A DNA stretch of 64,000 bases, from contig OZ242325.1 in the NCBI GenBank assembly GCA_965208245.1, forward strand, positions 2,581,878 to 2,645,877. The letters are read 5' to 3'. Both the position numbers and the translations under genes were made by a program. The stretch's first letter is position 1. The number at the start of each line of letters is the position of its first letter. Below are positions 1-59,282 of this stretch, in pieces. The DNA comes from Candidatus Poribacteria bacterium. GTDB taxonomy: Bacteria; Poribacteria; WGA-4E; WGA-3G. The notes under the pieces were generated by a model. The model was not told the origin of the DNA. It worked only from the letters and a program-made list of their open reading frames with translations, and made no database searches.

Positions 1-258
1 CAAGGAAATCAAGCACTCATAGAAAAAAATAAAGAATTGATGCAACCAATTTTCAAGGAACTTGAACAACTTATTATTAAAACCGGAAAAGATGAAAACT
101 ACGATCTAATTATTGACAGACAAGCAGCACTCTATTTTAATGAAAAGTACGATATTACGGACAAACTTATTATCCTGATTAACGCAGGAAATGAAAAAGC
201 AGAACAGAATAATCAGAATGCTGAAGTGCCGCAAAATGGAAATGCAGATCAAAAGTAG
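1..258 (+). CDS. skp: Periplasmic chaperone Skp/OmpH, C-terminal part (5' end lies outside the window)
   Basis: Frame 1 is open from base 1. The coiled-coil C-terminus with ...DLIIDRQAALYFNEKYDITDKLIILIN resembles the OmpH C-terminus, and lpxD follows immediately as in the conserved skp-lpxD arrangement. Confidence 0.6.
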   Translation, partial: QGNQALIEKNKELMQPIFKELEQLIIKTGKDENYDLIIDRQAALYFNEKYDITDKLIILINAGNEKAEQNNQNAEVPQNGNADQK

Positions 259-366
259 TAGGCACACTCCATGTACTTGTCAATTCTTGTCTGGGGAAAT
301 GTATCAAATAATTAGGCATACCCTAATAAGCTCAGATACTAATGTAGTAAAATTGCACCCGTTTCA

Positions 367-1437
367 ATGAGGATACTAAATATGAAACTAAAGGATATTT
401 CAGAACATATCGATGGCGAACTTCATGGGGATGGTGACATTGAAATAACGAGTGTTTCTGGCATTAAAGAAGCAGTACCAAACCAAATTACCTTCGTTGC
501 AAATACAAAATACCTGAGTGCTATCCCAACTACCCAAGCATCGGCAATAATCTTAGAACACGGTGTTTCTGGCAATGGGAAACCCACAATCCGTGTTGAC
601 AACCCATATTGGGGATTTGTAAAGGTCTTGGAATTATTTGCACAAGGAACAGAGAAAAATCAACAGACCGGTATACATAAAACAGCGATTATCGGAGAGA
701 ATGTTAAAATCGGAAATAACGTCTCAATACACGCACACTGTGTCTTAGAAGACAATGTGGAAATTGGTGATAGAACAATAATTATGCCTCTAGTATATAT
801 CGGAGAAGGAAGCAAAATTGGATGTGATGGCTTAATATACGCTAATGTAAGTATTCGTGATAATATCATTATTGGTGATCGTGTCATTATTCATTGTGGC
901 GCTGTCATTGGTAGCGACGGATTCGGGTTTACACCCGATCCCACAAACCATAGTCCATATAAAATTCCACAAATAGGTTCTGTTGTTATTGAAGACAATG
1001 TAGAAATCGGGGCAAATACAACAATTGATAGAGCAACAATCTCTGAAACGCTCATAAAAAACGGAACAAAACTTGACAATCTCGTTCAGATTGCACACAA
1101 TGTAGTTATTGGCAAAGATTGCTGTTTAGCAGCACAGACAGGTATTGCAGGAAGTAGCCAACTAGGCGACCGTATAAATATGGCAGGTCAATCTGGTGTC
1201 ATCGGACACCTAACACTTGGCGAAAACACCGTCATCTACTCAAAAACAGCTGTCACAAAAGATATCCCACCTGGAAGCCATCTTTCCGGTATTCCCGCCC
1301 GACCCCATAAACAGGAGTTACGTTTTCAAGCATCAATCAGAAAAATGCCAGAATTATTGCAAGAATTCAATAAACTGCAAAAACGTGTCGTGGAACTTGA
1401 AGAAAAACTACACGAACTTGAAAAAGAAGAATCTTAG
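367..1437 (+). CDS. lpxD: UDP-3-O-acylglucosamine N-acyltransferase (lipid A biosynthesis) with a C-terminal coiled-coil tail
   Basis: N-terminal LpxD domain followed by a long run of left-handed beta-helix hexapeptide repeats (IGxxVxIG...), placed directly downstream of skp. Confidence 0.85.
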   Translation: MRILNMKLKDISEHIDGELHGDGDIEITSVSGIKEAVPNQITFVANTKYLSAIPTTQASAIILEHGVSGNGKPTIRVDNPYWGFVKVLELFAQGTEKNQQTGIHKTAIIGENVKIGNNVSIHAHCVLEDNVEIGDRTIIMPLVYIGEGSKIGCDGLIYANVSIRDNIIIGDRVIIHCGAVIGSDGFGFTPDPTNHSPYKIPQIGSVVIEDNVEIGANTTIDRATISETLIKNGTKLDNLVQIAHNVVIGKDCCLAAQTGIAGSSQLGDRINMAGQSGVIGHLTLGENTVIYSKTAVTKDIPPGSHLSGIPARPHKQELRFQASIRKMPELLQEFNKLQKRVVELEEKLHELEKEES

Positions 1438-1565
1438 ACAAATGATGTAGAACACCCAGCGTAGGGACGAGGTCACCTCGCCCGTTGTCAATATTCTAAA
1501 CTGCCAATAATTCTAAAATTTACCATAACCCATTCCTGTTAACACCAGATAGAAACCATCAGAGG

Positions 1566-2420
1566 TTGACAATGAGGACGTTGTTAACGTATATTGAACT
1601 TGCAAGACCTTTGAACGGTGTAATCGCGTTTATTTCAGCTTGGTTAGGGGGCATATTCGCGATAGGCAGCACACTCAATTCATTTTCAAATGTAAAATTA
1701 TTATATGTCTCTATCGCATCACTGCTACTACTCTCCGCAGGCAACACTATAAATGATTATTGTGATTACAACATCGACTGCCATAACAGACCCGATCGTC
1801 CACTCCCATCAGGTAGAATCCGTAGAAGAAATGCACTCATATTCGCCATGACGCTTATCGGACTCGGTATTGCACTTGGCGTGTTAGTCAATTTATATGC
1901 AGTTTATGTTGCAGTGATAGTGTCTATGCTGCTCGTAACCTATGCTCTCATTTTCAAACGTACAACCATCTTAGGAAATTTAGTTGTCGGTATTCTGACA
2001 AGTCTGACATTCATTTCCGGTGGTATAGCAGTCGGTTCAGTACGAGGCACCATCATACCAGCTATTTTCGCCTTTCTATTTACAACAGCAAGGGAAATCG
2101 TCAAAGACCTTGAAGATATTGAAGGAGATAAGAGAGAAAACGTCAAAACACTTGCTAATCTCAATCCTCGCATGGCAATCGTCATGGCATTGAGTTTTAT
2201 GTTCTCTGTAATTTTATTTAGTCCTATTCCCTATCTGTTAGGACTTTATCCGTGGCAATATTTAGTAACGATCTTACTTGGCGTTGATCTTGTCCTTATC
2301 TGCTTAGGAATTCAACTCGTTACAAACACCTCAAAAGACGGTTATGCCAAAATACAACATTGGATGAAATGGGACATATTCATAGGTTTAGCTGCAATCT
2401 ATCTCGGAATCATCTATTAA
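1566..2420 (+). CDS. UbiA-family prenyltransferase, probable digeranylgeranylglyceryl-phosphate-synthase-like
   Basis: About 8 predicted transmembrane segments. NDYCDYNIDCHNRPDRPLPSG gives the NDxxDxxxD aspartate-rich motif, and a second acidic motif is near KDLEDIEGD. Two genes upstream of a PcrB/GGGPS homolog. Confidence 0.65.
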   Translation: MTMRTLLTYIELARPLNGVIAFISAWLGGIFAIGSTLNSFSNVKLLYVSIASLLLLSAGNTINDYCDYNIDCHNRPDRPLPSGRIRRRNALIFAMTLIGLGIALGVLVNLYAVYVAVIVSMLLVTYALIFKRTTILGNLVVGILTSLTFISGGIAVGSVRGTIIPAIFAFLFTTAREIVKDLEDIEGDKRENVKTLANLNPRMAIVMALSFMFSVILFSPIPYLLGLYPWQYLVTILLGVDLVLICLGIQLVTNTSKDGYAKIQHWMKWDIFIGLAAIYLGIIY

Positions 2421-2463
2421 GGATAAGAGAGAGGTGACGAATCATTTTTCGTCAAAATAGACA

Positions 2464-3675
2464 TTGAAAAAATATACCAAAGTAATAGAATTCTTAAACA
2501 GCACGACACCAAATATTGAGCATGCACTACACTTTATAGATGCATTTCAAAGTTCATCTTTAACAGACGAATTGTGTAAATCCTGCAGGGTCTTTACGTC
2601 AGGATGGAGACAGATTGACGGTGTAATGTTGATGAAACAGATGGAAGGGCATGATTCTGATTATCGTATACTTGTAAGTGCAACTACCGAACGAAGTCTA
2701 ACAGAACTACTCCTCGCTTTTCCAAGGAGTTCTTTGGGGATGTTTTTCCTGACGAATGAATGGATTGAAAGGAGAATTCTTGATCTGTTTGACGGTAAGA
2801 AGGTTAATGTAGGACCAGAAATCCGTTTCGTTGGAACAAAAAAAGGAAACATTACAGCAGCAGAACAGAAAACATTGACAAAAAAGAAAAATGAAATCGC
2901 CAATAATCTTGCTAAACTCACACCCATAAAAGGTAGATCTGAAAATATTCAGTTTCTTATTGAAGGTGAAATGTTGGTAGAACGCGCTTTCTACGATGGA
3001 TTACCTATCGAAAAGGTGCTTTATACAAACGATTTTGTCTCGTCTACTGCAGGCAAGGATTTTTTGAAGAAAGTTTTTGCCGAAAATCTTTCTATATATC
3101 TAACAAGAGATAGTGTATTAGGATCACTAACAACAACACGACCTATTCCCTCAATTATAGCATCAGTACATCAAAGTTATCCTATCTTTCTAAATGAAGA
3201 TGGACAAATGAATTTTAATTTCAGTCAAGACTGTATGTTGTTGATTATAGAAAACGTTCAGAATCCTGATAATCTTGGGATGACTTTACGCACAGCTGAT
3301 GCTGCAGGTGTTTCCGCTGTATTAATCAGCGGAGAAGGAGCAAATCCGTTCCATAAGAACTGTATTCGTGCATCGCGTGGTGCTGTTGGCAGGATTCCCA
3401 TTTTCTATGTTCCTTCATCGAAGTCAGCGATTGAGAAACTCAAAGCAAGGGGTTGGCATATCATTGGAGCAACAGCAAAAGCAGAAAAGGAAATTTACAC
3501 ATCGTCATATAGGACACCAATTGCAGTTATTGTTGGCAATGAGAATAGTGGTTTGACAGAAGAGACTCGAAATCAGTGCACAGAATTAGTAACTATACCA
3601 ATGGCAACCGGTCAATCTTCTCTGAATGTGGGCGTCGCCGCTGGAATTCTATTATACGAACTAAGAAGACCATGA
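2464..3675 (+). CDS. SpoU/TrmH-family RNA 2'-O-methyltransferase with an N-terminal domain of unknown function
   Basis: The C-terminal half carries the SpoU substrate-binding region and SPOUT motifs (ENVQNPDNLGMTLRTADAAGV...GNENSGL...SLNVGVAAGILLYE). Confidence 0.7.
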   Translation: MKKYTKVIEFLNSTTPNIEHALHFIDAFQSSSLTDELCKSCRVFTSGWRQIDGVMLMKQMEGHDSDYRILVSATTERSLTELLLAFPRSSLGMFFLTNEWIERRILDLFDGKKVNVGPEIRFVGTKKGNITAAEQKTLTKKKNEIANNLAKLTPIKGRSENIQFLIEGEMLVERAFYDGLPIEKVLYTNDFVSSTAGKDFLKKVFAENLSIYLTRDSVLGSLTTTRPIPSIIASVHQSYPIFLNEDGQMNFNFSQDCMLLIIENVQNPDNLGMTLRTADAAGVSAVLISGEGANPFHKNCIRASRGAVGRIPIFYVPSSKSAIEKLKARGWHIIGATAKAEKEIYTSSYRTPIAVIVGNENSGLTEETRNQCTELVTIPMATGQSSLNVGVAAGILLYELRRP

Positions 3676-3801
3676 CAACACCCCTATATCATAAGAATTT
3701 GACAAATTCGTCAGACGGTGTTAAAATAATTTAGTTTTGATATATAATCGTGTAAGTTAAATTCACCAAGGATCAATAACATTCTAACCAGTAAGGACCA
3801 G

Positions 3802-4554
3802 TTGCAGTTGAGACCAAATTGTATTCTAAGTTATCTAAAAACAGTTATTGCAGAAAAGGACGCAGGATACTTCGTCTTGATTGATCCGGAAATGTGTGAT
3901 GTAGAAAAAAGTGCAAAACTTGCCAATACCTTAGAGAACGCAGGGGTAGATGCGATTCTACTTGGAGGTAGTCTGCTAACTCAAGAATTGCATCCTATCG
4001 CAGCCTCTATCAAGTCAGAAACTGAGTTACCAATTATCCTTTTCCCTGGCGACTCCATGCATCTCACTCCACATGCAGATGCAATCATGTTTATGAGTCT
4101 CATCAGTGGACGAAACCCAAACTATCTCATCGGGGAACAAGTAAAAGCAGCACCATGGATCCAGAAATATGAATTAGAACCCATACCAATAGGGTACATG
4201 CTGATTGATGGTGGAAACAGAACTTCAGTAGAATTCATGAGTGGCACTGCTCCTATTCCGAGAGACAAACCTGACATCGCTGCACCCCATGCACTGGCAG
4301 CAGAATACCTCGGTATGCAGATGGTCTATCTGGAAGCAGGAAGCGGGGCAACACTGCCTGTTCCAAACGAGATGATTTCTTCTGTAAAAGAACAGATCAC
4401 AATACCATTAATTGTCGGAGGAGGCATCAGATCGCCTGAAACAGCAACTGAAAAAGTAAAAGCAGGAGCAGATTTTATAGTCACAGGGAACATACTTGAA
4501 GAAAAAGGTTCTATTGACCTTATGAAACAGTTTGCCATCGCAGTTCATGGTTAA
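3802..4554 (+). CDS. pcrB: PcrB/GGGPS-family (hepta/geranylgeranyl)glyceryl phosphate synthase
   Basis: TIM-barrel protein matching the PcrB/GGGP synthase family: DAILLGGS..., YLEAGSGA..., IVGGGIRSPETA... Confidence 0.75.
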   Translation: MQLRPNCILSYLKTVIAEKDAGYFVLIDPEMCDVEKSAKLANTLENAGVDAILLGGSLLTQELHPIAASIKSETELPIILFPGDSMHLTPHADAIMFMSLISGRNPNYLIGEQVKAAPWIQKYELEPIPIGYMLIDGGNRTSVEFMSGTAPIPRDKPDIAAPHALAAEYLGMQMVYLEAGSGATLPVPNEMISSVKEQITIPLIVGGGIRSPETATEKVKAGADFIVTGNILEEKGSIDLMKQFAIAVHG

Positions 4555-4612
4555 CTATTACAAATGACTTACATTATAGTGAATTTTGGAATTATAAAGA
4601 TATTTCAATGAA

Positions 4613-4695
4613 CTTGCAAGTACCACAAGTTCCGTAGGGGCGAGGCCTCCCTTGCAAGTACCACAAGTTCCGTAGGGGCGAGGTCTCCTCGCCCG
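4613..4695. repeat. REP-B hairpin element, two tandem copies, inside a 38-bp direct repeat (cttgcaagtaccacaagttccgtaggggcgagg.ctcc)
   Basis: The exact 38-bp unit is repeated; the core ccgtaggggcgaggtctcctcgcccg is a GC-rich hairpin that recurs at 9 other loci. Confidence 0.85.
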
Positions 4696-4776
4696 TTGAG
4701 AAGTGTTTCATTAAATGTAAGTTCCACTATTAGAATGTCCAATCAAAAAACAAACAATTAGAACGAGAGGAAATAC

Positions 4777-5508
4777 ATGATGTCAGAAAACAAAGAGGTA
4801 GTTATTGAAATTGGAACTGAAAACAAAGAATCTGATGCTGAAACTTCTGCAACACCAGATGATTCTGACAATACTACCGAAATAGAAAATAAAAATGACG
4901 AGCTTACCGTAGAAACACTACTCACAGAAATTGAAGAACTCAAAGAATCTTTCAAAAAACAAATTGAGGAAGTTGCAGAATCAGAGAGATCACAATATGA
5001 AACTGAACGGGAACGCTTGTTGCGCACCGCTGCAGAAGCTGAAAATACAAAAAGACGTGTTGAAAACGATGCTAAGAAACAACTAAAATTCGCAAATAAG
5101 AATATCATAGAAACAATTATTCCTGTATTGGATAGCCTTGAAGCAGCAATTAATAGCATTAATGAAAAAGTCGAAACTGAAACTCATAATCAAGATATGT
5201 CTAACTTCAGTGAAGGTGTAGAATTAGTACATAAACAACTATTAGATGTTCTAAGATTACATGGACTTACACCAATTGACTCCGCAATAGGTTCATTTGA
5301 TCCAAACCAGCATGAAGCAGTCTTGGCAACAGAATCAGATGAAGTGCCAGAGGGGAACATCATTGAGGAATTTAGACGAGGATATCTGCTGCATGAACAC
5401 GTAATTCGTGCCGCACAAGTTGTTGTGTCAACAGGAAAGAAAAAGGAAGAACCCACAGATGAAGGAACCGATGAAATCATAATCGACATTTCAACTGAGG
5501 AAGAATGA
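4777..5508 (+). CDS. grpE: Nucleotide exchange factor GrpE with an acidic N- and C-terminal extension
   Basis: Central coiled coil plus the GrpE C-terminal beta-domain (IPVLDSLEAA...GYLLHEHVIRAAQVVVS); dnaJ follows. Confidence 0.85.
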   Translation: MMSENKEVVIEIGTENKESDAETSATPDDSDNTTEIENKNDELTVETLLTEIEELKESFKKQIEEVAESERSQYETERERLLRTAAEAENTKRRVENDAKKQLKFANKNIIETIIPVLDSLEAAINSINEKVETETHNQDMSNFSEGVELVHKQLLDVLRLHGLTPIDSAIGSFDPNQHEAVLATESDEVPEGNIIEEFRRGYLLHEHVIRAAQVVVSTGKKKEEPTDEGTDEIIIDISTEEE

Positions 5509-5624
5509 ATGTAATACCTCTATTGTAGCACAATCTAACAGATTGTGCCGTTCTCTGTTCGATTTCTAAACAGCCAGTAATGAGGTAATTTAATAAAAAT
5601 GGTATAACTTAGGTAGGAAAACAC

Positions 5625-6734
5625 ATGCAACAAAAACGTGACTATTATGATGTTCTGAACATCAGCAGAGATGCAGATGAAAACGAAATTAAAAAAGCAT
5701 ATAGAAAATTAGCAGTGAAATATCATCCAGATAAAAATCAAGGTGATAAAGACACCGAAGAAAAATTCAAAGAAGCTACCGAAGCTTACGACGTGTTGAG
5801 AACACCAGAAAAACGACAGCGATATGACCAATACGGACATGCAGGACTTGAAGGAACAGCATCTGGATACGGATATGGCGTAAACCTTGACGATATATTG
5901 AGCGAAGTGTTTGGAGACATGTTTGGTGGTTTTGGAAGAACAAGCAATAGACCCAAACAGGGACGTAGTTTGCAGTACAGTCTTCAAATCTCACTTGAGG
6001 AAGCATATTACGGAAAAGAGGAAACAATTGAAATACCACGAATTGAATCTTGTCATGAATGTAGTGGAAGCGGCGCTGAAAGAGGATCAACTATTGATGC
6101 ATGTCCACAGTGCTATGGACGCGGACAAGTAACACAATCACAAGGTTTCTTTACAATGTCCCGAACATGTCCACGATGTCAAGGTGAAGGTGAAATCATC
6201 AAGAATCCATGTAAAAACTGTGATGGACAAGGCAGGATAAGAGTCAAACGAGAACTCAAAATAAAAATTGATAAAGGTGTTGACAACGCTACTGAGTACC
6301 GAATGCGTGGCCAAGGTGAAGCAGGTACTTTAGGAGGCCCCCCCGGAGACCTACTAGTTGTAATCCACATAAAACCACACCAAACTTTCACCCGGGAGGG
6401 AAACGACCTATATACATCAGCAAGAATTTCTTTTATCCAAGCATCACTTGGAACTACTATTGAAGTTAAAAATATTGATGGCGTACAAGAATTAGATGTG
6501 CCAGCAGGAACACAATACGGAGAACAATTGCATGTAAGGGGTAAGGGAATGCCAAGATATAGAAGTTCTTATTACGGTGACCTTGTTGTTCAGATAGAGA
6601 TAGAAACACCAAGAAAACTCACGACACAGCAGAGAACACTGTTAGAACATTTTGATGACCCTGAGTATAAACCAGACGGATCCCAGAACAGTAGTTTCTG
6701 GGAAAAACTCTTTAGCAATCAAGATGATAAATAG
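5625..6734 (+). CDS. dnaJ: Molecular chaperone DnaJ
   Basis: J-domain with HPD (YHPDKN), a G/F region, and four CxxCxGxG zinc-finger repeats. Confidence 0.9.
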   Translation: MQQKRDYYDVLNISRDADENEIKKAYRKLAVKYHPDKNQGDKDTEEKFKEATEAYDVLRTPEKRQRYDQYGHAGLEGTASGYGYGVNLDDILSEVFGDMFGGFGRTSNRPKQGRSLQYSLQISLEEAYYGKEETIEIPRIESCHECSGSGAERGSTIDACPQCYGRGQVTQSQGFFTMSRTCPRCQGEGEIIKNPCKNCDGQGRIRVKRELKIKIDKGVDNATEYRMRGQGEAGTLGGPPGDLLVVIHIKPHQTFTREGNDLYTSARISFIQASLGTTIEVKNIDGVQELDVPAGTQYGEQLHVRGKGMPRYRSSYYGDLVVQIEIETPRKLTTQQRTLLEHFDDPEYKPDGSQNSSFWEKLFSNQDDK

Positions 6735-6785
6735 TCAATATAGTGAAACCTAGAAGTAAATATACACTAATTCACTAACAGATAC

Positions 6786-6818
6786 CCGCACGTAGGGGCA
6801 GGGGTTCCCTGCCCGCAG
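6786..6818. repeat. REP-B hairpin copy
   Basis: cgtaggggcaggggttccctgcccgc palindrome. Confidence 0.8.
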
Positions 6819-6884
6819 CAATTCACTGTCCGTCGTACTAAGAAGTGTTATGAAACTTTCAGGTATCACTACAAATACTGAAAA

Positions 6885-7769
6885 ATGAAATGGATAAAGA
6901 TTACAATAAAAATATCTCATGAAGCATCTGAAACCGTAGCAAATCAATTATTTGAAATGCAGTCACTCGGCGTTGAGATAAGTGAAGACAATAAAAATAA
7001 TACGCTATTAACCGCATATTTCCCTCTGGATGACAAAACAAATTCAAGAGTTAACGAACTGAAAACCTTCCTGTCAAAACTACCTGCATGGGGAATCCAA
7101 CCGAATCCAGCAGAAATTGAACTAAAAAGAATTAAATCAGAAAAATGGACAGAGGCATGGAAAGCAAATTTCACACCTCAAAAAGTAGGAGAAAAGATAC
7201 ACATTGTTCCAACATGGTATAAACAACCCATCAATGAATCGGACATCGTAATAAAAATTGATCCTGGAATGGCATTCGGCACAGGTTACCATCCAACAAC
7301 ACGATTAACTCTACAAATGTTGGAAAAGTCAATCAAACCAAATCAGATTGTAGCAGATGTAGGAACTGGATCAGGAATCTTGGCAATTGCCGCTATCAAA
7401 CTTGGGGCGAAACATAGTGACGCGATTGAACTTGACCCGAAAGCAATACCAATAGCAATCACCAATTTCGCCAATAACAGTGTCTCAAAAAAAATTACAT
7501 TACATGAAACAGATGGACTCCGGACTGTTGAACGAAAATACGATCTTATCGTCACAAATATCCTAACAAAAGCAATCATACCACTGATTCCATACTGTCG
7601 TGATAGATTAAATCCAGATGGGAGTCTAATCTTATCCGGTATTCTGGAATCTGAACAGACCACCGTTCAAGAAACGCTAAAAGAAAACAGATTAGAATGC
7701 GTTTCTGTCACGCGTCAAACTGAGGATGAACTCATGTGGATAGCAATGTTAGCGAGGCTCCTTTGCTAA
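6885..7769 (+). CDS. prmA: Ribosomal protein L11 methyltransferase
   Basis: PrmA fold with the SAM motif DVGTGSGILAIAA. Confidence 0.85.
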   Translation: MKWIKITIKISHEASETVANQLFEMQSLGVEISEDNKNNTLLTAYFPLDDKTNSRVNELKTFLSKLPAWGIQPNPAEIELKRIKSEKWTEAWKANFTPQKVGEKIHIVPTWYKQPINESDIVIKIDPGMAFGTGYHPTTRLTLQMLEKSIKPNQIVADVGTGSGILAIAAIKLGAKHSDAIELDPKAIPIAITNFANNSVSKKITLHETDGLRTVERKYDLIVTNILTKAIIPLIPYCRDRLNPDGSLILSGILESEQTTVQETLKENRLECVSVTRQTEDELMWIAMLARLLC

Positions 7770-9872: not shown

Positions 9873-9950
9873 CCCCGCGTAGGGGAACGAGGCCACCTCG
9901 CCCGTCATTTACAAAGACCACCCCGCGTAAGGGCGAGGTCTCCTCGCCCG
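9873..9950. repeat. REP-B hairpin elements, two copies
   Basis: accaccccgcgtagggg.acgaggccacctcgcccg appears twice, 48 bp apart. Confidence 0.85.
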
Positions 9951-10005
9951 CACTAGACTGTTTCATTATATCTGAAATCCACTATAAACTAAAAGCGACT
10001 GAAAT

Positions 10006-21045: not shown

Positions 21046-21075
21046 AACCCGTAGGGGCGGGGTCTGCCCGCCCGT
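21046..21075. repeat. REP-B hairpin copy
   Basis: cccgtaggggcggggtctgcccgcccg. Confidence 0.8.
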
Positions 21076-32135: not shown

Positions 32136-32951
32136 TCATCCTTCTGAATTACCCTCTTCGTTCGATAACTTCAACGCAGTGCAAACCGCTTCACGTACTT
32201 CTCCGCAGATACGCATGGCGTTCTCTGCATCACTTGCAGTCGCAATTTTCTCCGGATACCGAGAATCCACCGCATGTTTTGTTAGTGTTGATAGATCAGC
32301 CTGCCATACACGCCATGCAGGCATTGTCGGTAGAATTAAGTCTAACAGATCATTTAAATTGTGTGTTCTCTGTATAGGAATGTTATGCTCTTGAAGCCAC
32401 GCCTTTAGATATTTTTCTACACACTGTTGTGCTAAAAAACAGATAACATGGTATACAGGATTCTGTCCTTGATAATTTTCCTCAGCTACAGAATAATCAC
32501 CCTCAGCCTTTTCTACCCATTCTAAAGTAATCGGGTTCATTTCTCTATTCTCTTTTTTGTGTGGTATGATATAGAAACCCTCGGTTTCATAGAGCACCTG
32601 ACCCTTCTCAGTGACTTCATGCAGAAACCAATCATTGTATGAAAGACGATATGCAATGTATTCTGGAGAACGGACGAGTAAGTCAATATTAAATCGACTC
32701 GGAATCTGTTTCTTAATCTCGACTTCTCTGTCGCGTACTTCAGATTTGTCAACCGGCATGACAACTAACAGGTCAACATCAGAGTTTTCTGAAGGTGTAC
32801 CATACGCATAAGAACCGTAAAGGATTATCTGTAATGGTGCAAATTCACGCACGATATCATCACAAGTAGCTAAAATCTCTTCACGACTTACCATCTTAAT
32901 GACCCTAAAATTTACTATCCTGATCGGTAATGGCACACCATGTACTGCCAT
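32136..32951 (-). CDS. Minimal nucleotidyltransferase (MNT) fused to a HEPN domain
   Basis: N-terminal MNT (ILYGSYAYGTPSENSDVDLLVVM) and C-terminal HEPN PF05168-type (QQCVEKYLKAWL...RTHNLNDLLDL...RYPE). Confidence 0.65.
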   Translation of the reverse strand: MAVHGVPLPIRIVNFRVIKMVSREEILATCDDIVREFAPLQIILYGSYAYGTPSENSDVDLLVVMPVDKSEVRDREVEIKKQIPSRFNIDLLVRSPEYIAYRLSYNDWFLHEVTEKGQVLYETEGFYIIPHKKENREMNPITLEWVEKAEGDYSVAEENYQGQNPVYHVICFLAQQCVEKYLKAWLQEHNIPIQRTHNLNDLLDLILPTMPAWRVWQADLSTLTKHAVDSRYPEKIATASDAENAMRICGEVREAVCTALKLSNEEGNSEG

Positions 32952-33498: not shown

Positions 33499-34572
33499 AT
33501 GGAAAAACTAAAGGAACTACAAATCTCAAACGATGCAATGAATGATCCTGAGGAGCTCCACACAAGGATGGCAGAAACGGGCTATCTATTCTTCAAGAAA
33601 CTACAGGATCCAGATAAACTCTGGGAATTGCGACGAGAAATGCTCACAACAATGCAACAAGAGGGTTGGCTCGTAGCAGATACTGACCCAATGGACGGCA
33701 TTGCCGATATTTCTACACAATGCACCGAAGGTGACCCCGAATATACCGATGTATACCATGAAGTATATAAGTTAGAAACATTCCACCAATCAGGACATTG
33801 GCACGAAGTCGTCAATATGGTAGAAAAGATAATCGGTAGAGAAGTACTACCCCATCCACAAAAAATCGCGCGTCTATGGTATCCAAAATATACTGAACAT
33901 ACAACGCCGATACATCAAGACTTCGTTCACTTTCAAGGAAACTTCCAGACCTATACATGCTGGGCACCCGTTGGTGATTGTCCAATAGAGTTGGGGGGAT
34001 TAGCAGTTCTCCCCGGATCCCATAAAATCAACGAAGTCATGGAACATCACTTCTCGCTCGGAGCAGGAGGTCTCTGTGTCAACACAGACGAGTTATCAGG
34101 TGAATGGCATACCACAAACTATGAAATAGGGGATACGTTGATATTTCCTGCATTGACTATCCATAAAGCCTTACCTAATTTGACCGAAGATAGACTCCGT
34201 GTTTCATTAGACAACCGCTACCAAGCCGTTGAGGATCCGATCTCTGAACACATGCTTGAACCGCATCTCAACATATTCAACTCGCTACAATGGGAAGATG
34301 TCTATTGCAATTGGGAATCTGATGAACTCAAGTACTATTGGAAAGACTCTGACTTAAAGGTCATTCCAAGAGACTTCAGTTATATAATGAAAGGATTTGA
34401 GGAAGCATTGCAGCTTGCAAGAAATGGGGATGACAGAGCTGTGCATCAACTAAAACGTATCATAAAACGCGACCCAACAGCAGACATGGCAATAAAAGCT
34501 ACAAAGGTTCTGCAGGATGTAGGTATTGAAACTTCGGTCAATTCAGAATTCAGGCACTCCTTTCCACAATAG
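33499..34572 (+). CDS. Phytanoyl-CoA dioxygenase (PhyH)-family Fe(II)/2-oxoglutarate oxygenase
   Basis: HQDFVHF (the HxD facial triad), PGSHK, and the PhyH-like double-stranded beta-helix layout. Confidence 0.6.
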   Translation: MEKLKELQISNDAMNDPEELHTRMAETGYLFFKKLQDPDKLWELRREMLTTMQQEGWLVADTDPMDGIADISTQCTEGDPEYTDVYHEVYKLETFHQSGHWHEVVNMVEKIIGREVLPHPQKIARLWYPKYTEHTTPIHQDFVHFQGNFQTYTCWAPVGDCPIELGGLAVLPGSHKINEVMEHHFSLGAGGLCVNTDELSGEWHTTNYEIGDTLIFPALTIHKALPNLTEDRLRVSLDNRYQAVEDPISEHMLEPHLNIFNSLQWEDVYCNWESDELKYYWKDSDLKVIPRDFSYIMKGFEEALQLARNGDDRAVHQLKRIIKRDPTADMAIKATKVLQDVGIETSVNSEFRHSFPQ

Positions 34573-37500
34573 CAATTTCGTCGGGGGTTAGTTCATATAA
34601 CTCGTAGACGAGTTGGTCAATCCCATTTTCAAGGTCTGTCGTGTCAGCGTTAGAATCGTCTTCTTTAGCAGCGAGTATTTGGTCAACTTTTTCTTCTATC
34701 CTTGATACCAAGGATCGGTTTTCTGTTGTAATCGGTGGAACATGAATCAATTCCACATACTGCTTTTTCCATTCAAAAGCATGACCTAACGGAATTCCTA
34801 AATTTATAAACTCCCAATTAAATATCTTAGAGTTCATACAGGCAAGTAGATACTTAATGCTGTTTTCCTGTGAAGTCAAAAGATTTGCTGGCGCATTAAT
34901 GAATTCTCCAGGTTTGGAGTAACAGAATGAACTACTATAAGCAATATTTCCCCAAACGACTTTTTCCTTGTTAAAATCGGAATAGTACGTTTTGGCACAA
35001 CGCTGCATAGCGTACCATTCATAACGAATACCTATTTCAGATCTATTTCTATTTGATAACTGATTCTGATATTCCAATAAATGTTCGTAGACAAACGGGT
35101 GTTCTTCTCTGAATTGATCTTCTGCTAATTGAGATGCTCCTGAAATTGTATTGTCTTCATGTAATGGAAAATGCCAAGGAATAAAGAGAAGATATAATCT
35201 TGACCACTGTGATTGAAAACGTTTGATGTCTCGGCCGCTGAGAAAAGGTTTAATGATCTCAGCTGACCTTGGGTCTTGTTGAATAAGTTCCTCGCGCTTG
35301 GCTTCGTCTATAATGAATGCTTCGTTACAACCAGTTACAATTCCACGATAGATGTTTACATCCCAGTCTTTGAGCGGTTTTCCAACATCCTCTATTTTGC
35401 GTTTCAGGTTGAGTTCAGCAGATGAGAGAATCGCCCACGGTTCACCTTTAGCGGGTATCTCCATACTTGTACCATTATCGATCAAATATCGGGAAATGTT
35501 ATTGATCTGTCTGTCAAAATCTGTTCCAATTGTTACGGCTTCAAAACCAGCAAGAGTCAAAGACGTGCTGCTTTGTAGCAGTAGGATATTTGTATCTACA
35601 GTAGCATCAAAAACGTCCGGTCCCATATCCAATAGTTGAATCGGTTGGGTATGTGTTACAAAATAATCTCTCAACTTTTTTCCATATCCTGCGCGCATCC
35701 ATTTGTTACTCGTAATATAGCAAAGATGTCCAGCCTGTGTTAAAAGTCTTATCCCGCGTTCATAGAACAAACAGTAAATATCACCCATCCGTGTAAAAGC
35801 ATCAAAACCTGCATCTTGATAGATATCTGCGAGTCTTCCACCCTCCTTTTGCAGTTGAATATAAGGCGGGTTACCAATCACCACATCAAATCCATCCGTA
35901 ACCCCAAACATCAATTCAGAGTCAAACCAATCTGCCTTGGCATTCTGGTCATACGGATCCCACTGTGCAATGCTATCTGCTTCATCTGCAAATACTCCAA
36001 GACTTTTTAGTTCCGTTGCCAGTTCCGCACGTAATTTTTCGTCTTTGTCTTTGCATGCACGTTTCTGTTGCCGTGTAGTTGCGTGGAAGTGCTTTTCACG
36101 GTTGTTGCGTAGTTCCTGTTCCAATCGGCTCGCTTTCTGACTTTTCAACGTCATTTGTTCCTTAAGTCCAATTAAGGTATCCGCAGCAACAAACCGCGTC
36201 TCTAAATTCGGCAACGGTTTGATACCGAAGTTCTCTGCGTCTCTGTCTGGGTCCTGCTCAATTGCCAGTGAGATAAAGAAGCGGAGTTTGGCAATCTGAC
36301 ATGCAATCGGTTGAATGTCCACACCGAAGATGCTGTTCTGAATCAGATACAACTTTCGTCCGAAGTCTGAATCTCGGTAACGCTTGAAAGTGTCATCAAT
36401 TTCAATCAATTCTTCACGGCGCGTTTGATCATCCTGTGTGTCATAAGCGATTTCTGTTCGTTTCAATGCAAGTTCTTTCTGCAATGCTTCCCATCGGTTG
36501 TTATCTGGGTCAAGTCGCCGCAGTGCCAGTGTCAACTTGTGGAGCATTCCCATCGGAAACGCCCCGGAACCGACTGCTGGGTCCAGTATCTTGAGTTCAG
36601 AGATAGTCTTGACAATCGCGTCTGTTTCACGATCATCAAACCATTCGCTTGCATCGTCAAACAGCTTTGCATAGTCAAACAGATATCGCAATCGTTCATC
36701 CCAAGCGACATCATTGGTATCAGTGGGTTGACACTTTTGAGATAACGTAGCGACTAACGCCTCCTCCACCATATAGTCTACAATGGCGCGTGGGGTATAG
36801 TAGGAACCTGTCATCTTGCGTGCTGTTTCTCCCGTTTCTGGGTTGATAGCAGCGAGTAGGTTCTCAAACACTCTACCGAGTAGTTCGGGGTCAAGTGCTA
36901 CCTCTTGATCTATCGGTGTGTTCTCTTCAACGGTGAATTTGCAGTGTTCAAGCAGGGGAATAAGTCCTCGGTTTTCATCAAAAAAGAGGGGGTTGGGTAT
37001 GGATAATTTATGATACTGCCTATCAGAGAAGCAGTCTATTCTGTAACCCCCTTCACCTGTGGCTTTGAAACTATCCAGACAATCGAACAAGCCACCGTTG
37101 ATGAAAGGGGTCTGTGCAAAGAGGGATAGCAGCTTTTCGGGGGCGTCCATCTGTTTTTTGTAACGATACCGCGAGAAATTACGGTGATTAGGATTGCCTC
37201 CCTTGCTAAACTCACGTTTGTCAATCTCCGTGTTTAGTGTAGCGAAAAAGAGGTTCTGTAGCACGGCACGATAGTAGGAATCGCCATTATCAAAGTCATC
37301 TTCTGTCAATAGGTCTTGGATTTGTGCTTTGTTGAACAGATCATCTGCCACTAATCCTTTTTCCTTGATAAACCAGATAAAGAGTAGACGTGTGATGAGG
37401 CGGATGACATGTTCCTCCGGTTTTATGACACGGTTTTCGTCTGCCGGAAACGTTGCTGTTTCTATTGCCCATTCATACCACGTGAACAGTTTCCGATAGA

Positions 37501-38194
37501 ACTTTTTATTCAACTCTTCTGTATTCAGAATCTTTTCCCATGCATCGTGAAGTGTATCAAAGTTATTAACTTCTTTAGTCTGGATAAGGTTACGGAGGTA
37601 TAGGTCGTAGATGATCTCAATATGGGCACGTATGGGGGTGTTTAGGTTTATATCCTTGATAAGGGTAACTTTCTCTAAGACCTGTTTTGTCTTATCTCGT
37701 TTGTGATGTCTACGGTTGATGATGGCAAGCGAGAGATAATCACCATATCGGAACATCACCATTATTGAATAGGGTGTTTTTCTACATAGGAATCGGGTAA
37801 TGTCCGCGAGTTGGGTACGTGTAAAGGAAGTACCATCAAGTTCTATAGCCACAAACATATAAGATGTTCTGAGGTTTTCGTTTATGCCTATGCTTTCAAA
37901 TAAGAATTGCTGATCAGGTGTTTGTTGCTGCTTTATCTCCTCATCTGTTATTTGGATGATGCGTCTATAGCTTTGCCATTTTTCAATGCAGAACTTCTTA
38001 GATGGATTAGAAGTTTCAAGAGCAGATTCAAGGAGATTGTTATACTTCTCGTTATCTAACGCATCGTTACTAATCCGCTTGCTACGATAGCCGAGGATAT
38101 CTAAGAGTTGTGTTGCAGCATCTCTTATCGGTTGGGTATCAAATTCCTTTAGGACGTTCTCAATTTTCTTCTTAATTGTTACTTCTGAATTCAT
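34550..38194 (-). CDS. Type IIG restriction-modification / PglX-like N6-adenine DNA methyltransferase (1214 aa) with a C-terminal target-recognition domain
   Basis: SAM motif I DPAVGSGAFPMG, motif IV VIGNPPYIQ, and a C-terminal TaqI_C-like TRD (YRGIVTGCNEAFII...IKPFLSGRDIKRF). The roughly 400-aa N-terminal region is of unassigned function. Confidence 0.75.
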   Translation of the reverse strand: MNSEVTIKKKIENVLKEFDTQPIRDAATQLLDILGYRSKRISNDALDNEKYNNLLESALETSNPSKKFCIEKWQSYRRIIQITDEEIKQQQTPDQQFLFESIGINENLRTSYMFVAIELDGTSFTRTQLADITRFLCRKTPYSIMVMFRYGDYLSLAIINRRHHKRDKTKQVLEKVTLIKDINLNTPIRAHIEIIYDLYLRNLIQTKEVNNFDTLHDAWEKILNTEELNKKFYRKLFTWYEWAIETATFPADENRVIKPEEHVIRLITRLLFIWFIKEKGLVADDLFNKAQIQDLLTEDDFDNGDSYYRAVLQNLFFATLNTEIDKREFSKGGNPNHRNFSRYRYKKQMDAPEKLLSLFAQTPFINGGLFDCLDSFKATGEGGYRIDCFSDRQYHKLSIPNPLFFDENRGLIPLLEHCKFTVEENTPIDQEVALDPELLGRVFENLLAAINPETGETARKMTGSYYTPRAIVDYMVEEALVATLSQKCQPTDTNDVAWDERLRYLFDYAKLFDDASEWFDDRETDAIVKTISELKILDPAVGSGAFPMGMLHKLTLALRRLDPDNNRWEALQKELALKRTEIAYDTQDDQTRREELIEIDDTFKRYRDSDFGRKLYLIQNSIFGVDIQPIACQIAKLRFFISLAIEQDPDRDAENFGIKPLPNLETRFVAADTLIGLKEQMTLKSQKASRLEQELRNNREKHFHATTRQQKRACKDKDEKLRAELATELKSLGVFADEADSIAQWDPYDQNAKADWFDSELMFGVTDGFDVVIGNPPYIQLQKEGGRLADIYQDAGFDAFTRMGDIYCLFYERGIRLLTQAGHLCYITSNKWMRAGYGKKLRDYFVTHTQPIQLLDMGPDVFDATVDTNILLLQSSTSLTLAGFEAVTIGTDFDRQINNISRYLIDNGTSMEIPAKGEPWAILSSAELNLKRKIEDVGKPLKDWDVNIYRGIVTGCNEAFIIDEAKREELIQQDPRSAEIIKPFLSGRDIKRFQSQWSRLYLLFIPWHFPLHEDNTISGASQLAEDQFREEHPFVYEHLLEYQNQLSNRNRSEIGIRYEWYAMQRCAKTYYSDFNKEKVVWGNIAYSSSFCYSKPGEFINAPANLLTSQENSIKYLLACMNSKIFNWEFINLGIPLGHAFEWKKQYVELIHVPPITTENRSLVSRIEEKVDQILAAKEDDSNADTTDLENGIDQLVYELYELTPDEIAIVERSA

Positions 38195-48374: not shown

Positions 48375-48468
48375 GGTTTCGTAGGGGCGGGGTTCCCCCG
48401 CCCGCATAGTGACCAATAGGAACAAGGTTTCGTAGGGGCGGGGTTCCCCTGCCCGCATAGTGACCAAT
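48375..48468. repeat. REP-B hairpin, two tandem copies (ggtttcgtaggggcggggttccccc/tgcccgcatagtgaccaat)
   Basis: A 43-bp unit is directly repeated with 8 bp between the copies. Confidence 0.85.
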
Positions 48469-53884: not shown

Positions 53885-56875
53885 ATGCAATTGAATAAGA
53901 ATTTATCACTGCTTTGCGCGATAATTTTCACTCTTTTTTTCTTCTCTCTAACTGGTCACACAGAACTGCCAAATGCAACGGAGAGTGAAACTGAAACGAA
54001 GAAAATAGAAGAGAATAGGTTACTCACAAATGTACGTCAACTTACTTATGCAGGTAAAAGGGCTGGTGAAGGTTATTTTTCTGAGGATGGAAACTCGCTT
54101 ATTTTTCAAAGTGAACGTGAAACAGACAATCCTTTCTACCAGATTTATATATTGGACCTGCTGACCGGTGAGTCACATCGTGTTTCTCCTGGTGTAGGGA
54201 AAACAACTTGTGCATTCTTCCGTCCGGGAACTGAAGAAATACTATTCGCTTCTACACATCACGATACGTTTGCACAAGCAAAACAGATCAAGGAGTTTGA
54301 ACTTCGCGCATCAGGAAAAGAACAACGCTACAGTTGGGATTATGATGTAACTATGGATATCTTTTCTGCTAATCGTGATGGAAGCAATCTCAAACAATTA
54401 ACAGATGCTGAAGGATATGATGCAGAAGGGTCCTATTCACCTGATGGTAAATACATCGTTTTCTGTTCTTTACGAGATGCCTATCCTAAGATAGACCTAA
54501 CGCCGAAACAACTAAAACAGTATGAGATTGATCCTTCCTATTTCGGTGAAATCTATATTATGGATGCAGACGGGTCAAATCAGAAACGTCTAACTGATTC
54601 ACCCGGATATGATGGCGGTCCCTTTTTTACGCCTGATGGACAACACATCGTGTGGAGACATTTTTCAGAAAATGGAAAAACTGCAGACATTTACACTATG
54701 CGTATAGATGGATCAGGGGTAACACGACTAACAGACTTCGGGAGTATGTCGTGGGCTCCATTCTTTCATCCAAGTGGTGCTTATGTCATTTTTGCATCAA
54801 ACAAACTCGGTTTTGCCAACTTTGAACTCTTTATCGTCGACTCAATGGGTAGACACGAACCTATTCAGGTTACATCAACAGATGGATTCGATGGTCTTCC
54901 TGTCTTCTCGCCTGATGGGAGTCGTTTATGTTGGACATCTAATCGCAACAATCAGAAACAATCACAACTCTATCTGGCAACTTGGAATCATGAAGCTGCT
55001 TTGGAAGCGATCTCCCTATCTCCTAGAAGCAGCATCACCAGAATCTCTGAACCGATAGGACAACAGATAAACGCAGATCTGGATTTTACTGATTTCGTTG
55101 ATGATACCAAAACTACCATTCAGCGACATGTTGCGTTTCTTGCTGACGATGCATTAGAAGGCAGAATGTCAGGTTCTCAAGGTTCAAAACGCGCAGCGGA
55201 ATACATCGTTAAAGAATTTACTAAACTCGGTCTGCAGCCCGCTGGGGAAGGGGGTGACTTCTTCCAAACTTTCGAATTCAATGCTGGCAGTCAACTCATC
55301 ACTGATAAGAACAATTTCGACATAACACGTAAAACAAACGATACAGACGTGCAGCTTAAATTCACGGTAAAGGATGATTTTTTGCCCTTCTCATTTTCAA
55401 GCAATGGTGATGTTGAGGGTGAAGTTGTTTTCGTTGGCTACGGTATACACACACCTAATGATACGAATTTAGGCTATGATTCTTACGACGGTATAGATGT
55501 GAAGGATAAGATCGTTGTTGCGCTGCGCTACGTTCCAGAAACCATCAAAGGTAAACGACGGCAGCAATTAATGCAACATGCAGGTATCCGCTATAAAGCC
55601 GTGCAAGCAAAGAAAAAAGGGGCAAAAGCGTTTTTAACAGTTGCTGGACCAAATTCTCAGAACGCTGGGAAGGTAATACCACTGAGTTTTCACAGCGGCA
55701 GTGCTAATGCTGGTATCATCGCATGTTCTATTTCAGATACAATTGCCAATGTCCTATTCTCACAAGCAGGTAAAGACCTTAAAGATGTTCAAACCAGGCT
55801 CGACGGTGAAAATCCACACTTTGTTGGGCATTTTCCAATACCCAATATCAAAATTAAAATATCAGCAGGAATTGAGAAGATTAAGAAGACAGATAATAAC
55901 GTTCTTGCGAAACTTCCACCAACTAACCCAACTGACTTTAGTGAATATATCATCATCGGCGGACATTATGACCATATAGGATTCGGGGAAATAGGTTCAC
56001 TTGCAAAAGGTGAAGAGAAAAATAAAATCCATAACGGAGCTGATGATAATGCTTCAGGTACTGCAGTCGTTCTAAAACTTGCAGAGATGTTCAGTGCTGA
56101 CTATAAAAACCATCCAGATAAGTTCAAACGTGGAATCATCTTTACGCTATGGTCCGGTGAGGAACTCGGACTTATCGGTTCAACACATTTTGTTAATAAC
56201 CCAACACTCCCTTTAGATAATGTCGCAGCCTACGTTAACTTTGATATGGTTGGACGACTTCGTGACAATAAACTCGTTCTTCAAGGAATAGGTTCATCAC
56301 CTATCTGGACAAAGATCATAGAAAAAAGAAACGTGCTCGTCGGACTTAATCTTTCACTAAAAGCTGATCCGTATATGCCGACTGACGTTACGGCTTTCTA
56401 TCCTAAGAATGTCCCTGTTCTCAGTTTCTTCACAGGATTACACAACGACTATAACCGTCCTTCAGATGACCCTGAAACGCTGAATTATGCTGGCATGGAA
56501 CGTATATCAAGTTTGGCTTACGGGATGGTATCTGACCTTATGAGTGCTGATGAACGTCCAGAATATGTAAAGGTTGAACGTAACGCACCCGAACAAGGAA
56601 GTCGCGCTTCAATGCATGCATATTTGGGGACAATTCCAGATTATACAACCGAAGATATTGGTGTAAAACTATCTGGTGTTGTAGGTGGCAGTCCAGCAGA
56701 AAAAGCCAGATTGAAAGGTGGAGATGTTATCACAGAATTTGGCACTAAGAAGATTGAGAACATATATGACCTCACTGACGCACTGAGGGCAGCCAAGATT
56801 GGGAAACCTATTGATGTGGTTGTGATACGTGATGGGAAACGAGTAAAACTGAAAGTCACACCTGAAGCAAGGTAA
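53885..56875 (+). CDS. Secreted multidomain protease: TolB-like PD40 beta-propeller, M28 zinc peptidase and C-terminal PDZ
   Basis: Signal peptide; repeated PD40 motifs (SPDGK.I.F.S.R.G...IY); M28 metal ligands (GGHYDHIGFG, HNGADDNASGTA, WSGEELGLIGS, NFDMVGR); PDZ (GVKLSGVVGGSPAEKARLKGGDVITEFG). Confidence 0.7.
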   Translation: MQLNKNLSLLCAIIFTLFFFSLTGHTELPNATESETETKKIEENRLLTNVRQLTYAGKRAGEGYFSEDGNSLIFQSERETDNPFYQIYILDLLTGESHRVSPGVGKTTCAFFRPGTEEILFASTHHDTFAQAKQIKEFELRASGKEQRYSWDYDVTMDIFSANRDGSNLKQLTDAEGYDAEGSYSPDGKYIVFCSLRDAYPKIDLTPKQLKQYEIDPSYFGEIYIMDADGSNQKRLTDSPGYDGGPFFTPDGQHIVWRHFSENGKTADIYTMRIDGSGVTRLTDFGSMSWAPFFHPSGAYVIFASNKLGFANFELFIVDSMGRHEPIQVTSTDGFDGLPVFSPDGSRLCWTSNRNNQKQSQLYLATWNHEAALEAISLSPRSSITRISEPIGQQINADLDFTDFVDDTKTTIQRHVAFLADDALEGRMSGSQGSKRAAEYIVKEFTKLGLQPAGEGGDFFQTFEFNAGSQLITDKNNFDITRKTNDTDVQLKFTVKDDFLPFSFSSNGDVEGEVVFVGYGIHTPNDTNLGYDSYDGIDVKDKIVVALRYVPETIKGKRRQQLMQHAGIRYKAVQAKKKGAKAFLTVAGPNSQNAGKVIPLSFHSGSANAGIIACSISDTIANVLFSQAGKDLKDVQTRLDGENPHFVGHFPIPNIKIKISAGIEKIKKTDNNVLAKLPPTNPTDFSEYIIIGGHYDHIGFGEIGSLAKGEEKNKIHNGADDNASGTAVVLKLAEMFSADYKNHPDKFKRGIIFTLWSGEELGLIGSTHFVNNPTLPLDNVAAYVNFDMVGRLRDNKLVLQGIGSSPIWTKIIEKRNVLVGLNLSLKADPYMPTDVTAFYPKNVPVLSFFTGLHNDYNRPSDDPETLNYAGMERISSLAYGMVSDLMSADERPEYVKVERNAPEQGSRASMHAYLGTIPDYTTEDIGVKLSGVVGGSPAEKARLKGGDVITEFGTKKIENIYDLTDALRAAKIGKPIDVVVIRDGKRVKLKVTPEAR

Positions 56876-58471: not shown

Positions 58472-58479
58472 CACAATAT

Positions 58480-59273: not shown

Positions 59274-59282
59274 AAAATATAA

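Follow-up and report, generated by a model that had tools for sequence, protein, structure and literature searches.

A putative archaeal-type ether-lipid gene pair, GGGPS and a DGGGPS-like prenyltransferase, linked to outer-membrane genes across the Poribacteria

The DNA analysed here, a window of 64,000 nt from a Candidatus Poribacteria bacterium (contig OZ242325.1), carries near its beginning a block of lipid genes, all read on the + strand, in which the genes for a UbiA-family membrane prenyltransferase and a PcrB-family enzyme lie 1.38 kb apart in the same orientation. On balance, and with moderate confidence, this block is read as encoding the two enzymes with which the archaeal membrane-lipid pathway forms its ether bonds, geranylgeranylglyceryl phosphate (GGGP) synthase, or GGGPS, and digeranylgeranylglyceryl phosphate (DGGGP) synthase, or DGGGPS, in a diderm member of the Poribacteria. 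Pairs of this kind have been described before; what is new is the phylum in which this one occurs, its synteny with outer-membrane genes throughout that phylum and an ancestral three-gene module, discussed below. An earlier note on this DNA had marked three open reading frames (ORFs) here, for UbiA, SpoU and PcrB, all of which were found again on the + strand (Table 1); the NDxxDxxxD motif it had recognised in UbiA stands at residues 63–71 as N-D-x-x-D-x-x-x-D, and the SpoU-family methyltransferase it had called unrelated to the pair is of the RNA 2'-O-methyltransferase type. The Skp and LpxD genes by which it had characterised the genome are likewise present, and the order over positions 1–7769, all on the + strand, is the 3' end of Skp/OmpH, LpxD, UbiA, SpoU, PcrB, GrpE, DnaJ and PrmA.

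By its subfamily scores, the PcrB homologue is a group II GGGPS. The protein passes the GGGP equivalog model TIGR01769 (235 bits, cut-off 162) and the subfamily model NF003198 (298.5 bits, cut-off 247), and because the latter is also the best model for the characterised GGGPS of Methanothermobacter thermautotrophicus (Mt, 344) and Flavobacterium johnsoniae (Fj, 284), it defines group II as a whole. The group II structures in the PDB are matched at 186 (4MM1), 177 (4JEJ) and 165 bits (6NKE/6JO3, two Thermoplasma enzymes), and the group I GGGPS of Archaeoglobus fulgidus, 2F6U, at 41 bits. The earlier note had considered that the protein might fall into the Bacillus heptaprenyl clade; the model for the heptaprenylglyceryl phosphate (HepGP) synthases of that type, NF003197, gives only 35.5 bits (cut-off 260), and the Bacillus/Staphylococcus structures 3VZX and 1VIZ (32 bits each) and 4NAE give 29–32 bits, against 165–186 for group II, so that the protein lies outside that clade. 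This call between groups I and II is based on hidden Markov model and PDB scores, not on the neighbour-joining tree described below. In the alignment, the residues of catalysis and stereoselectivity, Y132, Y176 and E178, are kept, as are the phosphate-binding loops EAGSG and GGGIR. Specificity for C20 chains is likely from the sequence; L88 aligns with the chain-length limiter on helix α3' (V86 in Mt, I90 in Fj), a position held by Val or Ile in the C20-specific enzymes and here by Leu, of similar size, the limiter being poorly defined according to PMC9385802. At the position of the aromatic anchor, W141 in Mt, the window protein has F145; such an anchor is described in PMC9385802 as driving hexamer formation, and a hexamer is therefore predicted for this GGGPS.

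For the UbiA homologue, DGGGPS is the best-supported subfamily, and the protein is described here as DGGGPS-like, not as a certified equivalog. Its best NCBIfam models are all of the DGGGPS type (NF009521, 216.5 bits; NF009523, 210; NF009522, 167), in the same ranking as for the enzyme of Methanocaldococcus jannaschii (MjDGGGPS), while the other UbiA subfamilies follow with 90 (EboC), 78 (ChlG), 60 (UbiA), 53 (CyoE, heme O synthase) and 32 bits (MenA). Membership among the MenA/UbiA quinone prenyltransferases, the alternative placement considered in the earlier note, is not what these scores point to, and none of the quinone thresholds is reached: 60 bits with TIGR01474 (275), 32.5 with NF004749 for MenA (277) and 46.5 with NF041585 for MqnP (375). 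The only strong match in the PDB is MjDGGGPS itself, 6M31 (139.6 bits, E=1.5e-39, residues 3–283 of 284), the second being a chlorophyll synthase at 39 bits. Both Asp-rich motifs are present, and N63, D67, D71, D181, D184 and D188 align with N62, D66, D70, D180, D183 and D187 of the M. jannaschii enzyme, the mutation of which impairs it (PMC9385802); at least 7 segments of the protein are strongly hydrophobic. A search of 1.84 billion cluster representatives places it in a rather isolated clade, with identities of 52, 48, 44 and 43%, then about 38%.

The pair stays beside outer-membrane genes across the phylum. A scan for GGGPS in one genome per GTDB species gave 47 loci, of which 43, at 72–93% identity, form the Poribacteria clade from sponges and corals; the nearest named GGGPS from outside the Poribacteria in these species representatives belongs to the FCB (Fibrobacteres–Chlorobi–Bacteroidetes) lineage Zhuqueibacterota (55%). 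A protein 100% identical to the GGGPS of the window is carried on a contig of 4.25 Mb. Placing seven window proteins on the GGGPS loci by tblastn showed the order LpxD-UbiA-SpoU-PcrB-GrpE-DnaJ-PrmA on a single strand throughout the Poribacteria loci. In all 41 informative loci, UbiA precedes PcrB on one strand (41 of 43, contig ends cutting the other two), and SpoU stands between them in 40 of these 41, being missing from L030 and also from the relative L056. LpxD, a diderm marker, is syntenic and 70–97% identical across these loci. OmpH lies upstream of LpxD in L050, L054 and L058, BamA upstream of Skp in relatives, and window positions 4–195 match residues 117–181 of the L058 OmpH at 51% identity (tblastn, E=7e-21). 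In the distant Poribacteria, identities are 72–76% for GGGPS, 70–72% for LpxD, 60–66% for UbiA and 56–62% for DnaJ/GrpE. The ratio of nonsynonymous to synonymous substitution rates (dN/dS), calculated against three close relatives, is 0.12–0.20 for UbiA and 0.09–0.18 for PcrB, like that of the housekeeping neighbours (LpxD, 0.09–0.10; DnaJ, 0.09–0.15), and it follows that purifying selection keeps both genes. The capacity for archaeal-like ether lipids suggested in the earlier note is thus supported as a genetic capacity by the subfamily scores, the catalytic residues, the 41/41 linkage and dN/dS values of 0.09–0.20.

Insertions recur at the SpoU-PcrB junction, with transposase-like ORFs in L007 (5327–10000) and unrelated ORFs on the opposite strand in L004 (8351–10000) and L042 (6849–10000), and it is the same junction that holds the reductase genes described below in L054 and L058. 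LpxD and the DGGGPS-like UbiA are separated by a second, divergent UbiA paralogue of 304–367 aa in L025, L027, L028, L029, L031, L035 and L038, and this paralogue occurs also at L050 4331–5245 and L054 7811–8914; its best NCBIfam match, at 55 bits, is a generic prenyltransferase, and it is absent from the window.

A third archaeal-type lipid enzyme, geranylgeranyl reductase (GGR), is found in the clusters of relatives. In L058 (PcrB 71%) the exact frame of the window is extended by a ferredoxin gene (Fer4) and GGR between SpoU and PcrB; in L054 (UbiA 52%, PcrB 64–65%) the order is BamA-OmpH-LpxD-deacetylase-UbiA2-UbiA-SpoU-Fer4-GGR-PcrB-HrcA-GrpE-DnaJ-PrmA; and in L056 (UbiA 44%, PcrB 58%) a PHP metallohydrolase, UbiA, a ferredoxin::GGR fusion and PcrB follow one another with overlapping gene ends. 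This position of Fer4-GGR between UbiA and PcrB in three relatives supports a lipid-pathway module. The GGR of the relatives matches the digeranylgeranylglycerophospholipid reductase of Thermoplasma, 3OZ2, over its full length at 259 bits and, among the matches listed, shares about 50% identity with a homologue from Methanocellales. Ancestrally, the gene order in Poribacteria was most likely DGGGPS-(SpoU)-Fer4-GGR-GGGPS, with three archaeal-type lipid enzymes, the clade of the window having lost GGR from the cluster position. GGR orthologues share multi-Mb Poribacteria chromosomes with GGGPS and UbiA, and in the sponge-type genome L057 Fer4-GGR stands elsewhere, next to a UvrA-like gene, a DnaJ-domain gene and a gene of the phytanoyl-CoA dioxygenase family (PhyH), so that the reductase has left the cluster at least once. 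PhyH genes are seen near the lipid block or GGR in the window (33499–34572), in L054 (18224–18861) and in L057 (9001–9759), a proximity that may be coincidence, the family being large, or may reflect isoprenoid-chain metabolism.

The Poribacteria GGR appears, from its coding sequence, to be a candidate selenoprotein. Three independent assemblies carry an in-frame TGA at codon 46 (L054 11882–11884, L057 5941–5943, L058 5980–5982), which coincides with the catalytic Cys of the motif PVRCAEG, a Cys that is present in L055, in L056 and in the Poribacteria-labelled GGR proteins P0415, P0501 and P0510. The frame runs on for some 351 conserved codons past the TGA, and a hairpin GCACAG...CTGTGC, which resembles a bacterial selenocysteine insertion sequence (SECIS) element, starts 13–14 nt 3' of the UGA. 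Most Poribacteria GGR entries among the database matches listed are truncated at the N-terminus (283–346 aa), consistent with gene callers stopping at the TGA codon. Poribacteria are listed in the literature among the phyla with selenocysteine-containing hydrogenases; a literature search found no paper describing a selenocysteine GGR.

In the basal relatives, a gene for a CehA/McbA-family PHP metallohydrolase of 524–551 aa stands immediately before the DGGGPS-like UbiA gene (L050/L051 5300–8004, L055 5249–8052, L056 3–1577), with a GT2 glycosyltransferase gene upstream of the PHP gene in two of them; the products of these genes may turn DGGGP into a diether that is dephosphorylated or glycosylated. 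Relaxed tblastn revealed no remnants of GGR, Fer4, PHP or GT2 in the window, and the PHP and GT2 genes are absent from the sponge-type loci as well. In two further loci (L048 2693–4414 and L052 7420–15355), UbiA relatives of 38–42% identity are directly followed by BacA/UppP, in L052 also by a lipid-synthesis cluster YceD-PlsX-FabH-FabD-FabG-ACP-FabF, and no PcrB occurs within 8 kb.

In the proposed pathway, the GGGPS, a soluble TIM-barrel enzyme (3802–4554), would transfer the C20 geranylgeranyl chain of geranylgeranyl diphosphate (GGPP) to the C3 hydroxyl of glycerol phosphate, most likely glycerol-1-phosphate (G1P) and possibly glycerol-3-phosphate, giving GGGP, and the multi-pass membrane UbiA (1566–2420) would add a second geranylgeranyl chain at C2, giving DGGGP, the unsaturated archaetidic acid. 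Head groups could be placed on DGGGP by ordinary, promiscuous bacterial enzymes of the CdsA, PgsA or Pss type, the ferredoxin-dependent GGR, where present, could saturate the chains, and the product would be archaeol-type diether lipids beside normal membranes of fatty acids and lipid A. In this scheme we infer the C20 length, the stereochemistry of the glycerol phosphate, the addition of head groups, and how much product is made and where in the cell it is found.

Several observations weigh against the proposal that the pair makes archaeal-type membrane lipids. Among the approximately 45 window ORFs of at least 120 aa, the Pfam matches include no G1P dehydrogenase, GGPP synthase, CarS or GGR, and a 2016 survey table gives no EgsA/AraM for Poribacteria (PMC5059525); with relaxed tblastn, GGR was found neither in the window nor in the 10-kb regions flanking the 43 sponge-type loci. 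The UbiA homologue, 34% identical to MjDGGGPS, stays below every NCBIfam DGGGPS equivalog cut-off (216.5 against 296, 210 against 269 and 167 against 353), these models being narrow, as MjDGGGPS itself scores only 299 on NF009521 with its cut-off of 296. In its phosphate-binding loop, the GGGPS has N230 at the position of a conserved Thr of group II, where group I has Asn. In the neighbour-joining tree of GGGPS with PDB and GTDB anchors, finally, the Poribacteria clade is supported at 88% with L058 inside it, but the branching in relation to FCB and Methanothermobacter sequences (archaeal-like IIa versus FCB-like IIb) has only 4–22% support, and the rooting is unreliable, the Paenibacillus outgroup ORF having been mis-extracted at 833 aa.

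The main rival explanation, clearly the less likely one but one with a real share of the probability, accepts that both enzymes are active and assigns to them a low-abundance prenyl-glycerol lipid, such as an anchor, a carrier or the precursor of an envelope-polymer glycolipid, instead of a bulk membrane lipid. The position of the block within an envelope-biogenesis neighbourhood, (BamA)-Skp-LpxD, would suit such a product, as would the GT2 gene and the PHP metallohydrolase, a possible phosphatase, that precede UbiA in basal relatives, the BacA/UppP gene 3' of UbiA in two other relatives and the fact that neither CarS nor G1P dehydrogenase was found in the window; in Bacillus subtilis, moreover, the heptaprenylglyceryl phosphate made by PcrB undergoes dephosphorylation and acetylation and does not serve as a bilayer lipid (PMC9385802). 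Nevertheless, the GT2 and PHP genes are missing from the window and the sponge-type loci, the archaeal-type reductase in the cluster of relatives suggests saturated diether lipids of the kind typically found in membranes, and conservation is as strong as for LpxD. The chemistry as far as DGGGP is in any case identical in both explanations, which differ only in the fate and abundance of the product.

It is improbable that UbiA prenylates another acceptor and lies near PcrB by a historical accident of operon structure, GGGPS then yielding only the monoether GGGP or a derivative. The scores below the equivalog cut-offs, the ready switching of acceptor specificity among UbiA subfamilies (PMC7852524, PMC9385802), the unrelated SpoU gene that splits the pair and the close UbiA relatives that elsewhere adjoin BacA with no PcrB nearby can be cited in its favour; yet the DGGGPS models score more than 75 bits above all other UbiA subfamilies, all six catalytic or GGGP-binding residues are kept, and the linkage to PcrB holds at 44–66% protein identity, with the compact UbiA-GGR-PcrB arrangement and overlapping ends in L056. 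Still less credence is given to a pair that runs in reverse or in salvage, recycling the ether lipids of sponge ammonia-oxidising archaea. Poribacteria do share their sponges with abundant Thaumarchaeota, which counts for such a role. It was raised by Coleman et al. for bacteria without G1P dehydrogenase (PMC6431249), an enzyme for which the 2016 table has no Poribacteria entry (PMC5059525). Catabolic operation, however, is known for neither prenyltransferase family, the Cloacimonetes homologues are biosynthetic in Escherichia coli (PMC7852524), the same genes occur in non-sponge relatives, and the neighbours are housekeeping genes, with a constitutive-looking promoter upstream of PcrB.

The synthesis of archaeal-type membrane lipids, the preferred explanation, has its closest parallel in the GGGPS/DGGGPS pairs already established in the FCB group and in some candidate phyla (PMC7852524, PMC6431249). 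In Cloacimonetes, neither EgsA/AraM nor CarS was found, and their GGGPS and DGGGPS, when produced in E. coli, gave unsaturated archaetidylglycerol although no dedicated CarS was present; a G1P dehydrogenase is dispensable there, and this host makes G1P even in the absence of AraM (PMC7852524). The lack of G1P dehydrogenase and CarS in the window mirrors this situation, in which product was still formed in E. coli. As in the Cloacimonetes/FCB pair, a group II GGGPS and a DGGGPS-like UbiA are co-localised in a diderm genome with normal bacterial lipid genes; unlike that pair, the Poribacteria genes are linked throughout the phylum, with SpoU and in some lineages Fer4-GGR in between, and it is for the Cloacimonetes pair that enzyme activity has been shown. 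Co-localisation of GGGPS and DGGGPS was given as restricted to Cloacimonetes in a table covering FCB genomes only (Villanueva et al. 2021, PMC7852524). The earlier note had seen in such pairing a signature of FCB-group bacteria and candidate phyla, and the pair is indeed present, but its host is placed by NCBI taxonomy in 'Bacteria incertae sedis' and not in the FCB group.

With the archaeal enzymes, the window proteins share folds, families and catalytic residues at 43% identity to Mt GGGPS (4MM1) and 34% to MjDGGGPS (6M31), and the GGR of relatives aligns over its full length with that of Thermoplasma acidophilum (3OZ2); the differences from the archaeal pathway are the bacterial host with lipid A, the window without CarS and EgsA, the Asn in place of Thr in GGGPS and the scores of UbiA below the cut-offs. 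The F. johnsoniae GGGPS (4JEJ, Bacteroidetes group IIb) is likewise a bacterial group II enzyme, 44% identical, with I90 as limiter where the window has L88; it is a dimer without the aromatic anchor (Peterhoff et al. 2014, as summarised in PMC9385802), a position at which the window GGGPS has Phe, and linkage of Bacteroidetes GGGPS to DGGGPS is not reported in the surveys consulted. B. subtilis PcrB (group Ib) shares with the window enzyme the family PF01884, the TIM-barrel fold and glycerol phosphate as acceptor, and differs from it in its C35 chain, another limiter position and the lack of a partner DGGGPS. Poribacteria are not named in the text or supplements of PMC7852524, nor in the text of PMC6431249, as far as these were accessible, and full-text literature searches returned no relevant work joining Poribacteria with GGGP(S) or geranylgeranylglyceryl. 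A preprint of June 2026 on ether-lipid pathways of sponge symbionts implicates Poribacteria by way of elbD, agps and mss, states that no ether-lipid biosynthesis is on record for them and never mentions GGGPS/DGGGPS.

The SpoU gene was considered as a lipid enzyme and rejected, its product having a SPOUT RNA methyltransferase domain and an RNA-substrate-binding domain and the gene being absent in L030 and L056; it is most likely an unrelated RNA methyltransferase gene inserted into the ancestral DGGGPS-Fer4-GGR-GGGPS module. The PF22435 match is to an MRM3-like substrate-binding domain, the score with the RlmB model TIGR00186 (138 bits) is below the cut-off of 160, and the N-terminal extension of about 145 aa (window 2464–2900) has no Pfam or NCBIfam match; homologues are longer still, with 440 aa in L054 and 460 aa in L058. 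Between SpoU and PcrB, the leader of the latter (3676–3801) is about 95% identical over some 110 nt in L001, L002, L003 and L005, with synonymous divergence (dS) of 0.2–0.5 in the flanking genes. It holds a near-consensus promoter (Table 1) and a second TATAAT-like box, and matches no Rfam family. As the leader is more conserved than the flanking synonymous sites and contains that promoter, PcrB probably has a promoter and leader of its own.

The block of UbiA, SpoU and PcrB is bracketed by copies of a GC-rich palindrome resembling repetitive extragenic palindromes (REP-like), at 1461 and at 4630–4698. The motif, GTAGGGGCGAGG-NNN-CCTCGCCC, has 9 matches at 7 sites of the window, against 0 expected from shuffling; other intergenic copies lie at 9927–9953, 13761–13783, 21051–21073 and 48381–48454, and the copy 3' of LpxD is missing from the close relative L001. 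The start codons in Table 1 are the probable ones because the homologues of UbiA have 282 aa and those of PcrB 248 aa.

Table 1. Features of the lipid-gene block in the window, with the reductase genes of relatives
Feature	Position	Strand	Remarks
Skp/OmpH periplasmic chaperone, C-terminal end	1–258	+	gene cut by window edge; stop codon 256–258
LpxD, lipid A N-acyltransferase	367–1437	+	TIGR01853 368 bits (cut-off 242); NF002060 393 bits
REP-like palindrome GTAGGGACGAGG-TCA-CCTCGCCC	1461–1483		between LpxD and UbiA
UbiA-family membrane prenyltransferase, DGGGP-synthase-like	1566–2420 (likely ATG 1572, 282 aa)	+	PF01040 143 bits
SpoU/TrmH-class RNA 2'-O-methyltransferase, RlmB-like	2464–3675	+	PF00588 129 bits; PF22435 30 bits
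Sigma-70-like promoter TTGACA-17 nt (with TG)-TAAAAT	3699–3727	+	matches 11/12 consensus positions
Group II GGGP synthase, PcrB family	3802–4554 (likely TTG 3808, 248 aa)	+	PF01884 167 bits (cut-off 24)
REP-like palindrome, two copies (one degenerate)	4630–4698		between PcrB and GrpE
GrpE, DnaJ, PrmA	4777–7769	+	family assignments; downstream end of phylum-wide syntenic run, 43 Poribacteria loci
Ferredoxin + GGR	L058 5557–7041; L054 11529–12937; L056 2438–3835; L057 5506–6999		

Elsewhere in the window, the protein described in the earlier note as TolB-like (53885–56875) proved to be a PD40-repeat, M28 peptidase and PDZ protein, for which that name is loose, as it is not TolB itself. RNA genes are tightly clustered at 58384–60033: besides tRNA-Arg(acg) and tRNA-Ala(cgc) there are four for tRNA-Ser (tga, gct, cga, gga), a tadA-like deaminase gene (58794–59273) is embedded among them, and the large bacterial signal recognition particle RNA (59768–60033) comes next. 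A 1214-aa restriction-modification fusion of the Eco57I/TaqI_C type (34550–38194, − strand), a TPR protein of 628 aa that has a TaqI_C-like domain and precedes an SMC/AAA ATPase (14100–17416, + strand) and a HEPN and nucleotidyltransferase protein (32136–32951) may form defence islands.

The 'lipid divide' that separates archaea from bacteria is a central problem of early cell evolution, and natural candidates for mixed membranes have so far come only from FCB-group bacteria and a few candidate phyla. With the pair described here, the Poribacteria are added to the small number of bacterial groups in which membranes may be of a mixed archaeal/bacterial kind, which widens the phylogenetic base and adds a second case of conserved co-localisation bearing on the inheritance of these genes as a unit. 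A bolder extension, put forward tentatively and somewhat against the balance of probability, is that the whole phylum makes saturated archaeol-type diether lipids with an inherited DGGGPS/Fer4-GGR/GGGPS module in the BamA-Skp-LpxD locus, the GGR being a selenocysteine enzyme in many lineages. If this is true, it would amount to a natural and ancient 'mixed membrane' outside the FCB group, in uncultured bacteria with an outer membrane and lipid A that are abundant as symbionts of sponges and corals. Poribacteria are abundant in high-microbial-abundance sponges, and the finding bears on who makes the isoprenoid ethers of the sponge holobiont; under the same extension, they would be an overlooked bacterial source of the sponge isoprenoid glycerol ethers that are usually credited to archaea.

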